Shown one piece after another: positions 18,800-20,166 of a DNA stretch of 64,000 nucleotides (its first letter is position 1; each line of letters opens with the position of its first letter). Source of the DNA: Shigella phage SF1-1; the sequence record PQ571307. One strand, given 5' to 3'. The notes beneath the pieces were generated by a model. That model was not told the DNA's origin, did not search any database, and worked only from the letters and a program-made list of their open reading frames with translations. Made by a program: the position numbers and the translations under genes.

Positions 18800-19165
18800 T
18801 TAGTCCATCCACCAGTAGCCATAAACTGCGTCTGCGTCGATGAGTTTGTGTTTGTTGTTCCGCATGTAGTCTAAGATAAGTAGACGTTTATTGTATCTGG
18901 AGAGATTATGACCCTCTTTTCCGCCATAGTCAAAATATTTTGCAAGATCTTTACACTCAAACAAAATCAGTTCGGGAGTTTCTTCACACTGGTCTGTCTG
19001 GTACACTTGACGAATGATCATGTATACATCATCGTCTTCCGCTAAATGCTCTACTGGTCCACATCCAGCAGGAACAAATTCATAGTCCCATTTGATTAGA
19101 TGTTTCTCTACTGCTTCAAAGAAGTCCATTCTTTCGTTGCGCATAATTTGAACGTCAACTAACAT
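18800..19165 (-). CDS. hypothetical protein
   Basis: 121 aa ORF. Confidence 0.5.
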   Translation of the reverse strand: MLVDVQIMRNERMDFFEAVEKHLIKWDYEFVPAGCGPVEHLAEDDDVYMIIRQVYQTDQCEETPELILFECKDLAKYFDYGGKEGHNLSRYNKRLLILDYMRNNKHKLIDADAVYGYWWMD

Positions 19166-20166
19166 GTTTCCTCCTGTAATATTCCACCATAAAGTTTATA
19201 AATGTTTTGTATTGATGCCAGACAAGATAGCTCCACTGTTTCTGTGTAGCCGTCTGGCATAGCATATTTGCTCACTGCTTCTGTGTCTAACACCTTTTTG
19301 CAATACTTTTCTGAATTTTTGCACTGCTTCACAGTGGGGAACTGCCACACTTGAACTTGTCTCATAGTAAACACATTGCGGCTATTCTGTTCTTTGATAC
19401 GGCGATCACTACTATTGGCAATACCAAACTTCAGTGCACAAAGAATACCATCTTCATCATAAATATGATTAATGTAACATTGTTGTTGGTTTTGGCCCCC
19501 GCACTGCGGACACCCACTCCCCTTATGTAGCAAACCATCTGCACGCCCTATCTGTTCCCCGTGCTCCTTACATCCATATTTAAACTTACCCATTGTTGAA
19601 GGTTTACCGATCCATCCTACCCATATATATCCTCTCCTTTCTACTTCCTTTCTTGTTCTATAGGTGGTCTGATCCTCTGTGTATTTGTAACTTGTAGAAC
19701 AGCGGCAAGGGAGACACCCACGTTTAAGATGACTTCCGGTAGCATAGAATTTACCATCACACACCCCAGCTTCCACATATTCATCATGAGAGCAAACAGG
19801 ACATTCAACCATCCATACTATATCACACCCTTTACGTTCCCCTGTATTGGTGAAAATAGTGCCTTCCTTAAATTTACCTACCTTCATAAAATCTTGTATG
19901 TGTTGCTGGTCTGGAATAGTGATAGCTTTGCTTCTCTTTTTCGAACGTTCCCTGTAGGCGCACTTAGGACAACCTCGACCATCTTTAAAACTGTGAAACG
20001 TTGTAGTATTCCATTCATGACCATGCTCACAACGATTGATCATCTTCGTATGCACACCTTTATCTTCTCCATACGTGCCGAGAATGGTAATCCCTTTAGC
20101 CTCAGCTATCGGCTTACATTCTTCCATATATGTTTCAATACTCTTCTTTACTGGCATATCTAACAA
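19159..20166 (-). CDS. multi-zinc-finger protein with C-terminal GIY-YIG-like (T5orf172-like) domain; possible homing endonuclease
   Basis: 335 aa; repeated C..GH.W...F..F..G.GCP.C units; C-terminal YINHIYDEDGILCALKFGIANSSDRRIKEQ resembles GIY-YIG/T5orf172 pattern. Confidence 0.5.
   Translation of the reverse strand: MLDMPVKKSIETYMEECKPIAEAKGITILGTYGEDKGVHTKMINRCEHGHEWNTTTFHSFKDGRGCPKCAYRERSKKRSKAITIPDQQHIQDFMKVGKFKEGTIFTNTGERKGCDIVWMVECPVCSHDEYVEAGVCDGKFYATGSHLKRGCLPCRCSTSYKYTEDQTTYRTRKEVERRGYIWVGWIGKPSTMGKFKYGCKEHGEQIGRADGLLHKGSGCPQCGGQNQQQCYINHIYDEDGILCALKFGIANSSDRRIKEQNSRNVFTMRQVQVWQFPTVKQCKNSEKYCKKVLDTEAVSKYAMPDGYTETVELSCLASIQNIYKLYGGILQEETC

Follow-up and report, generated by a model that had tools for sequence, protein, structure and literature searches.

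Three nuclease-like genes in a stretch of Shigella phage SF1-1 and their probable division into a mobile, a fixed but variable and a vertically inherited class

Are nuclease-like genes that stand beside the core genes of a phage all selfish elements, or can some of them be fixed or core components of the genome? A 64,000-nucleotide stretch of Shigella phage SF1-1 (record PQ571307; hereafter the window, meaning the whole stretch analysed) raises this question. An initial annotation had proposed that it holds three free-standing selfish endonucleases scattered beside core replication genes, namely a multi-zinc-finger GIY-YIG-like protein (gene 1), an HNH protein directly upstream of a UvrD-like helicase (gene 2) and an AP2-type protein directly downstream of DNA polymerase (gene 3). 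The three open reading frames (ORFs) were confirmed at the following positions:

19159–20166, minus strand: gene 1, a CapR/zinc-ribbon and T5orf172-like (GIY-YIG superfamily) endonuclease (from ORF, Pfam and PHROG).
28482–28991, plus strand: gene 2, a conserved protein of 169 amino acids with a cysteine-less HNH-like core (from ORF, PHROG and tblastn).
56334–56912, plus strand: gene 3, an IPA-HNH/AP2 free-standing homing-endonuclease-like gene of 192 amino acids (from PHROG, hhalign and AlphaFold (AF2)).

The three genes probably fall into three classes: gene 3 is a mobile gene resembling homing endonuclease genes (HEGs), gene 1 is a fixed but variable member of an HEG family, and gene 2 is vertically inherited. 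By DNA identity to its relatives, the window belongs to a Phapecoctavirus (Stephanstirmvirinae), a phAPEC8-like E. coli myophage. Around the genes, DNA identity is 99.2% with Escherichia phage BI-EHEC, 98.5% with Mt1B1_P17 and 91–97% with phAPEC8 and many other Phapecoctavirus. Insertion sites were compared across dozens of close relatives, including RefSeq records with curated names. The sporadic presence and absence at a precise site that marks an HEG was found for gene 3 but not for gene 1, which is always present and varies by allelic cassette and repeat number, nor for gene 2, at which no gap was seen. Profile searches gave some endonuclease-family support to each protein. The proposed selfishness therefore suits gene 3, suits gene 1 in part (it belongs to an HEG family but is never absent) and does not suit gene 2, a core gene. 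Gene 2 (helicase) and gene 3 (polymerase) do lie beside replication genes, whereas the neighbour of gene 1 is an AAA ATPase, which is not a recognised replication gene. Catalytic activities, target sites and homing itself are what we infer throughout from homology, architecture, distribution and junctions.

Gene 1 encodes 335 amino acids if translation begins at a TTG and 332 if it begins at the ATG at 20157, the equivalent of which is used by its closest database homologue. The protein carries three zinc signatures in all, followed by a nuclease-like domain, in the order given here from the N-terminus:

19954–20055, minus strand: N-terminal treble-clef zinc ribbon, residues 38–71 (C46, H50, C66, C69), from DUF4379 and the allele alignment.
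19696–19893, minus strand: central CapR homology domain, residues 92–157, the best Pfam CapR stretch.
19492–19584, minus strand: third zinc ribbon, residues about 195–225 (C199, H202, C219, C222), from a pattern scan.
19162–19482, minus strand: C-terminal T5orf172-like nuclease domain, residues about 229–335, from the homologue alignment and Pfam.

The Pfam profile CapR (PF21817) matches gene 1 in three stretches at 83.2 bits (cut-off 24.2; E = 1.5e-23) and was matched in 36 of 36 homologues, down to 22% identity; the treble-clef ribbon matches DUF4379 at E = 0.0018. The CxxC...CxC motif described for CapR-type modules (PMC10448857) is present as C122, C125, C154 and C156, which are invariant among five alleles of the locus, and the ligands of the third ribbon are likewise invariant among alleles. 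The T5orf172 profile (PF10544) scores 14.1 bits on the window protein, below the cut-off of 20 (E = 0.068), and 18.0 and 15.4 bits on the ESCO5 and phAPEC8 alleles. Among the same 36 homologues it was matched in 15 at E ≤ 0.01 (best 3.5e-6) and MUG113 in six, and the homologue P0134 has a precomputed PF10544 assignment. Y231, E286, D305 and E309 are invariant in these diverse homologues, and K246, G248, I249 and R256 are kept in at least 90% of them; the set fits what would be expected at the active site of a GIY-YIG-superfamily enzyme, where these residues would have catalytic roles. Gene 1 also falls in PHROG 681 'endonuclease' (E = 1.3e-64), its RefSeq orthologues carry the annotation 'endonuclease', and ORF165 of phage ICP1 ('putative homing endonuclease') matches it with 34% identity over residues 24–201 (tblastn). 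The description as a multi-zinc-finger GIY-YIG-like protein thus holds, and judged by its sequence gene 1 is a new member of the T5orf172/CapR family already described as HEGs. As such it would be a modular site-specific nuclease, built from one treble-clef zinc ribbon, a CapR domain, a further zinc ribbon and a C-terminal GIY-YIG-superfamily domain.

The gene 1 slot lies between the ATPase gene and the same small downstream gene, and it is filled in every relative inspected, in two genera. The locus is syntenic in Justusliebigvirus alia (465 amino acids) and in the divergent PsgM04F (331 amino acids). Its features are:

20236–21375, minus strand: AAA ATPase, lying upstream of gene 1 as its conserved neighbour (Pfam AAA, 8.7e-7; PHROG 2376 'ATPase', 3.9e-111).
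20200–20219, minus strand: hairpin resembling an intrinsic terminator, between gene 1 and the ATPase and within the cassette (from the hairpin and the Schickermooser annotation).
19188–20231, no strand assigned: extent of the gene 1 cassette relative to the Schickermooser-type allele (from the boundaries of blastn high-scoring segment pairs).

Alleles of 335, 394, 400, 402 and 486 amino acids correspond to one, two or three N-terminal zinc-ribbon modules. The module is present once in the window and two or three times in other alleles, and tandem DNA repeats are seen as two copies of 198 nucleotides in phAPEC8, as three copies of 222–228 nucleotides in Schickermooser and not at all in the window. 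Amino-acid identity to the window allele ranges from 39% to 99%, with flanks that are 94–98% identical. The type of allele does not follow the similarity of the flanks, as in ZCKP1, where 97.9% identical flanks enclose an allele with only 39% amino-acid identity. Relative to the Schickermooser-type allele, DNA homology ends at 19188 and restarts at 20231, with flanks of 94.3% and 97.4% identity, and the Schickermooser record has a terminator annotated at the place equivalent to the hairpin. From these breakpoints, the exchanged unit is therefore the whole of gene 1 together with the upstream terminator-like hairpin. In the closer alleles, the DNA-binding modules are 45–74% identical compared with 82–87% for the nuclease domain. 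Gene 1 is mostly single-copy per genome, with a few records showing two or three places (tblastn). We propose that gene 1 would be an HEG-family nuclease fixed at its locus across the subfamily, evolving by whole-gene cassette exchange, and that its specificity modules would vary through gain and loss of repeats. Its role would most likely be inter-phage competition or gene conversion between alleles.

Possibly, but with less than even probability, gene 1 is instead a domesticated nuclease that benefits the phage, either as an exclusion weapon against relatives or as an anti-satellite factor like Odn of ICP1, and the variation of its zinc modules tracks its targets. The gene is fixed and syntenic across genera, retains its catalytic-type residues and concentrates its diversification in the DNA-binding modules, all of which would suit such a role. 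Further, this lineage does domesticate such nucleases, since relatives including Mt1B1_P17 have a separate Odn-like RepA_N-T5orf172 gene, and both ICP1 Odn and the Odn-like gene of Mt1B1_P17 serve as precedents (PMC10448857). However, whole-cassette exchange between near-identical flanks is equally expected from homing of allele against allele, and gene 1 carries CapR/zinc-ribbon modules and no RepA_N domain.

Gene 2 was rightly placed directly upstream of the helicase, from which it is separated by 14 bp. The features of this locus are:

28731–28877, plus strand: HNH-like beta-beta-alpha core of gene 2, residues 84–132 (H96, N110, N119), from hhalign and the AF2 model.
29006–30598, plus strand: UvrD-family helicase, the context of gene 2 (Pfam UvrD-helicase, 1.4e-19; UvrD_C, 7.4e-11).

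The 169 residues of gene 2 are the length of all its close homologues. The gene was found in 423 phage records with exactly one copy each (tblastn), spread over the whole of Stephanstirmvirinae and Ounavirinae. Six of six sampled Phapecoctavirus rows have it at 100% identity and 64 records at 99% or more; the identity is lower in the phiWec190 group (74%), in Justusliebigvirus (53%) and in Felixounavirus and other Ounavirinae (about 37%). The surrounding DNA is 96–99.6% identical within Phapecoctavirus and continuous across the gene. Because gene 2 is single-copy and near-invariant and its identity drops with taxonomic distance, it reads as a core gene passed on vertically rather than as a selfish element, most likely with a conserved housekeeping role in DNA processing. 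A functional partnership with the helicase was considered and rejected: the adjacency is not kept outside the genus, the Felixounavirus homologue sits among small genes near the anaerobic ribonucleotide reductase (RNR) gene rather than beside a helicase, and alia has an extra gene between the two.

The HNH label of gene 2 stands on remote profile comparison and finds no direct backing in Pfam, PHROG or PDB. No Pfam or NCBIfam match and no PDB match by sequence was obtained; the protein falls in PHROG 3500 'unknown function' (E = 2.6e-72) and is hypothetical in every GenBank record. A search of 1.8 billion representative proteins with the family profile found only 15, among them P0228 (E = 8e-4), a true Pfam HNH protein (PF01844, 5.6e-12). 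By hhalign the family profile matches P0228 with 97.2% probability (E = 3e-11), a remote link that rests on this one bridging sequence, and P0228 and the gene 2 core align residue for residue, CDHVVPMSRGGVDHPSNWQLACRRCNRAKGD against LGHYIPFRKGGVHFPCNWIIQTRKENSLAGD. The family shares the invariant stretch FTLGHYIPFxxGGxHFPxNWIIQ....N..AGD; H96 and N110 are invariant and N119 nearly so (at least 90%) across 16 sequences that reach down to 25% identity. In the AF2 model (predicted local distance difference test, pLDDT, 78), strands at 92–96 and 111–115 and a helix at 116–121 form a beta-beta-alpha element. The zinc-binding cysteines CxxC...CxxC are absent from the family, as they are from many HNH subfamilies, and the helical N-terminal domain is specific to the family. 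At the level of the core motif the HNH label is thus probably right; we regard the core as a probable HNH-type nuclease, and the family as a previously unnamed HNH-like one. It is rather doubtful that gene 2 is no nuclease and that its HNH-like segment is a structural or protein-binding relic in a conserved accessory protein of replication or nucleotide metabolism. Such a relic sits badly with residues H96 and N110 that stay invariant, and N119 that nearly does, at 25% identity, and with a segment that aligns at 97% hhalign probability with the DH...N...N core of a Pfam-HNH protein. As a separate observation, residues 5–50 of gene 2 (window 28482–28630) show a weak family-profile match to Bacillus halodurans RNase H, within its C-terminal region (E = 0.01 over 46 residues), probably by chance.

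A bolder and unlikely reading has two independent halves: the ATPase-adjacent locus of gene 1 may be a fixed 'programmable nuclease' slot of Stephanstirmvirinae, and gene 2 may found a new cysteine-less HNH nuclease family. In the first half, exchange of whole-gene cassettes and zinc-ribbon modules would redirect cleavage towards co-infecting relatives or satellites, and gene 1 would be an inter-virus weapon rather than a parasite. In the second, gene 2 would act in DNA processing as a core component in the phages of Stephanstirmvirinae and Ounavirinae (Felix O1-like).

Gene 3 starts 29 bp after the end of the polymerase gene, directly downstream as had been predicted. Its site and its product comprise:

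53707–56304, plus strand: family A DNA polymerase, the context of gene 3, with no intein here (Pfam DNA_pol_A, 1.4e-13).
56292–56326, plus strand: cluster of substitutions at the polymerase 3' end and just beyond, left of the insertion, a candidate target or immunity site (window compared with phAPEC8).
56327–56909, plus strand: 583-bp insertion carrying gene 3 (from junction comparison with genomes that lack the gene, termed HEG-minus).
56391–56648, plus strand: N-terminal IPA-HNH-like domain, residues about 20–105 (from an alignment of 32 homologues and predicted structure).
56661–56828, plus strand: C-terminal AP2 DNA-binding domain, residues about 110–165.

In place of the insertion, HEG-minus genomes have 16 bp that are part of the GGGGCTTCTGCCCC hairpin. 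The junctions are exact, and at the right end the stop codon of gene 3 runs into TAGGAG, the ribosome-binding site of the next gene, without damaging it. When gene 3 with 1 kb on each side was used as query, at least 80% was covered in only 9 of 127 related records; most Phapecoctavirus match both flanks at 96–99% and are without the roughly 570 bp between them. The gene is absent from phAPEC8, Mt1B1_P17, Schickermooser and ESCO5 and present in 536P1, nieznany, iGC_PHA_EC001 and phiWec181, and within Justusliebigvirus alia has it at the same place and inny does not. Beyond these genera, the family was found at 2568 places in 1501 records, in Vibrio, Rheinheimera (Barba), Bacillus and other phages (tblastn), and GP59 of ICP1 also lies directly after the ICP1 DNA polymerase. 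The empty site of HEG-minus genomes (L006, phAPEC8 1222–1243; equivalent to window 56326/56910) carries a GC-rich hairpin, AAGGGGCTTCTGCCCCTT, after the polymerase and before the following gene. The insertion of gene 3 removes this hairpin, and therefore read-through from the polymerase into genes downstream may differ between HEG-plus and HEG-minus phages.

The product of gene 3 belongs to PHROG 953 'HNH endonuclease' (E = 3.4e-68), is labelled 'hypothetical' in most records and has no Pfam match above noise. It resembles ICP1 GP59 by BLASTP (E = 9e-18, 32% identity over 150 amino acids), and its family profile aligns with GP59 at 99.9% hhalign probability (E = 3.9e-31); the LDKD...N motif occurs in both. 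GP59 is a founding member of the IPA-HNH class of HEGs, together with GP115-116 and GP209 (Barth et al., 2023; PMC10448857), and this class was put in the HNH superfamily via HHsearch since Pfam profiles miss it (PMC10448857). Across 32 homologues, down to 30% identity, W28, R34, W56, F62, W65, D78-K79-D80, Y87, C92 and N100 are invariant. In the AF2 model (mean pLDDT 94.6), a beta-beta-alpha element is predicted at 75–78, 93–96 and 97–103, and the AP2 label is borne out by structure and profile. The N-terminal domain gave no link to HNH by structure comparison or profile, and when the gene 3 family was aligned by hhalign with the gene 2 family or with a PF01844 protein, the outcome was negative. 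The catalytic assignment is thus second-hand, taken over from the published assignment of the IPA-HNH class.

Between the window and phAPEC8 there are 12 mismatches in the 35 bp at 56292–56326, compared with 14 in the preceding 992 bp. This pattern resembles a recognition site altered in HEG-carrying genomes, for which the cluster is a candidate. During co-infection, the gene 3 product would bind via its AP2 domain and cut the HEG-minus allele near the polymerase 3' end, and repair from the HEG-plus genome would then copy gene 3 and nearby polymerase sequence. On its junctions and distribution, gene 3 is the one convincing free-standing homing-endonuclease-like gene of the three. It is improbable that it is instead a catalytically inactive AP2 DNA-binding protein, such as a regulator, whose patchiness stems from ordinary recombination or deletion. 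Inactivity would explain an HNH-like motif without the canonical histidine, the want of a significant structural match to HNH nucleases and of a Pfam HNH match, and the same want of any Pfam match in ICP1 GP59. It would not explain why D78, K79, D80 and N100 stay invariant among such distant homologues, why the family is multi-copy and scattered over unrelated phage groups, why the same post-polymerase position recurs in ICP1 and two Stephanstirmvirinae genera, or why substitutions cluster at the left junction.

Several points weigh against the threefold division. None of the three proteins has a nuclease domain above the Pfam gathering threshold, and none, searched as a single protein against PDB sequences, matched a solved nuclease. 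Genomes without gene 1 at its locus were not found among the relatives inspected, and its homing in a strict sense is putative. In all five HEG-plus Phapecoctavirus compared, the penultimate serine codon of the polymerase reads AGT/AGC or ACA (Thr), and in all four HEG-minus ones it reads TCC, but this sample is small, related and not phylogenetically independent, and in Justusliebigvirus the pattern fails, as HEG-plus alia and HEG-minus inny both have TCT. The converse proposal, that all three genes are active, selfish, free-standing homing endonucleases aimed at neighbouring core genes, is very improbable: each protein does give some nuclease-family signal, genes 2 and 3 abut helicase and polymerase, and clustering of HEGs near essential genes is known (PMC10448857), but gene 2, near-invariant and present once per genome, is distributed vertically over two subfamilies and in Felixounavirus is not beside a helicase, and gene 1 is never absent from its locus and neighbours an ATPase.

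Further members of these families were not detected in the window: no additional paralogue of genes 1–3 was found when all ORFs of at least 50 amino acids were searched with phmmer and family hidden Markov models, and no nuclease domain was found by Pfam in ten other mid-sized ORFs, a scan that was not exhaustive. Three further sites (about 55451–55455, about 24371–24511 and 27749–28117) hold mobile-type elements in relatives but not in the window. The first lies in the polymerase gene, where ESCO5, iGC_PHA_EC001 and 536P1 have an in-frame insertion of about 730–735 bp; the polymerase has 1110 amino acids in ESCO5 and iGC_PHA_EC001 compared with 865 in the window, and the window and phAPEC8 are without the insertion. 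The PaulScherrer polymerase has an annotated intein, and the ESCO5 insert gave no intein or endonuclease domain by Pfam at E ≤ 0.01. The idea that another gene replaces gene 3 in some relatives was rejected, as the extra stretch of about 735 bp lies within the polymerase gene. At the second site, Mt1B1_P17 has about 1.5 kb extra, including gp053 (328 amino acids; HTH_36, 2.5e-11; MUG113, 4.4e-4). This gene, which the window phage is without, corresponds to the RepA_N-T5orf172 'Odn-like' anti-satellite nuclease, described for Mt1B1_P17, Inny and Muut (Barth et al., 2023; PMC10448857).

The third site, two genes upstream of gene 2, is a polymorphic slot with three states. It holds a DUF4326 gene in the window, phAPEC8 and Mt1B1_P17, nothing in nepoznato and, in Schickermooser-type genomes, a 180-amino-acid protein with sub-threshold matches to LAGLIDADG_3 (7.8e-4) and HTH_38 (2.4e-4). 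The true HEG-type variable site near the helicase may be this slot rather than gene 2. The DUF4326 protein has 122 amino acids and matches only DUF4326 in Pfam (1e-21), and in RefSeq relatives it is named 'ribonucleotide reductase NrdA-like', which looks like an over-annotation inherited from a PHROG label. The helicase itself is annotated as intein-containing in Justusliebigvirus vB_EcoM_ZYD and is uninterrupted in the window.

Elsewhere in the window, a 264-amino-acid ORF at 52913–53707, whose stop overlaps the polymerase start, weakly matches an Eco57I methylase-like profile (E = 0.016) and may encode a DNA methyltransferase. A tellurite-resistance-like set at 36606–45844 includes a ComF-like phosphoribosyltransferase (36606–37433, 2.2e-41), a vWA-TerF-like protein (43937–44731, 1.6e-37) and TerD (45242–45844, 3.2e-28), and relatives annotate TerC and 'tellurite resistance' genes near the equivalent place. 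The left arm (1–17250) has many small minus-strand ORFs; compared with Mt1B1_P17, it is a mosaic in which short blocks of 91–97% identity alternate with unmatched stretches and the spacing is rearranged. From 17257 on, the two genomes are mostly collinear, except for the roughly 1.5 kb missing at 24371–24511 and small gaps. Related records labelled as Campylobacter, Acinetobacter, Klebsiella and Pseudomonas phages share 76–98% identity with this coliphage lineage, and some of these host labels may be unreliable.

We suggest that gene 3 be named IPA-HNH/AP2 homing-endonuclease-like, gene 1 CapR/T5orf172 nuclease and gene 2 HNH-like conserved protein. Phapecoctaviruses serve as candidates in therapy and biocontrol. 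At two places, the HEG behind the polymerase and the hypervariable nuclease cassette, co-infecting relatives will swap DNA or exclude markers of one another, which is relevant to the design of phage cocktails and to phylogenies. Both gene 1 and gene 3 add a new member to a family that had already been described as phage HEGs; nothing in the set is mechanistically new, and knowledge of how such elements work is unchanged.

Among known systems, gene 1 has the same architecture as the T5orf172/CapR HEGs of Vibrio phage ICP1 (gp165, gp174 and others; PMC10448857) and compares with CapR of the PLE satellite (PMC8096241): repeated zinc-ribbon/CapR modules at the N-terminus and T5orf172 at the C-terminus. 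T5orf172 HEGs carry repeated CapR/DUF723 zinc-finger DNA-binding modules and gain or lose repeats by recombination (Barth et al., 2023; PMC10448857), and gp174 of ICP1 shows repeat-number polymorphism via recombination between modules (PMC10448857). Unlike these sporadic HEGs, gene 1 is fixed, at a single syntenic locus, in both Phapecoctavirus and Justusliebigvirus and is mostly single-copy, its nuclease domain has diverged below the Pfam threshold, and its neighbour is an AAA ATPase rather than a terminase, capsid or RNR gene. Gene 2 aligns its core, GH-x-x-P-x3-GG-x5-NW-x8-N-x3-GD, with the DH-x-x-P-x3-GG-x5-NW-x8-N-x3-GD of classical HNH proteins (PF01844, McrA/colicin type). Unlike them, it lacks the four zinc-ligand cysteines, has its own helical N-terminal domain and no Pfam match, and is a single-copy core gene.

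Polymerase genes are reported as the commonest neighbourhood of IPA-HNH genes, at 29% (PMC10448857). With the IPA-HNH HEGs, or the older HNH-AP2 class, gene 3 shares the C-terminal AP2 domain, the post-polymerase position and invisibility to Pfam HNH profiles. At 192 amino acids it is without the N-terminal extension of GP59 (272 amino acids), and it belongs to a coliphage lineage. Its family has D-K-D...N in place of the canonical H...N...H/N, a feature that is family-wide and not peculiar to the window copy. The free-standing seg and mob HEGs of T4 belong to different nuclease and DNA-binding families. Their intergenic insertions disrupt neither gene, they are polymorphic for presence and absence and the sequence next to the insertion is diverged, and in all of this gene 3 is like them.

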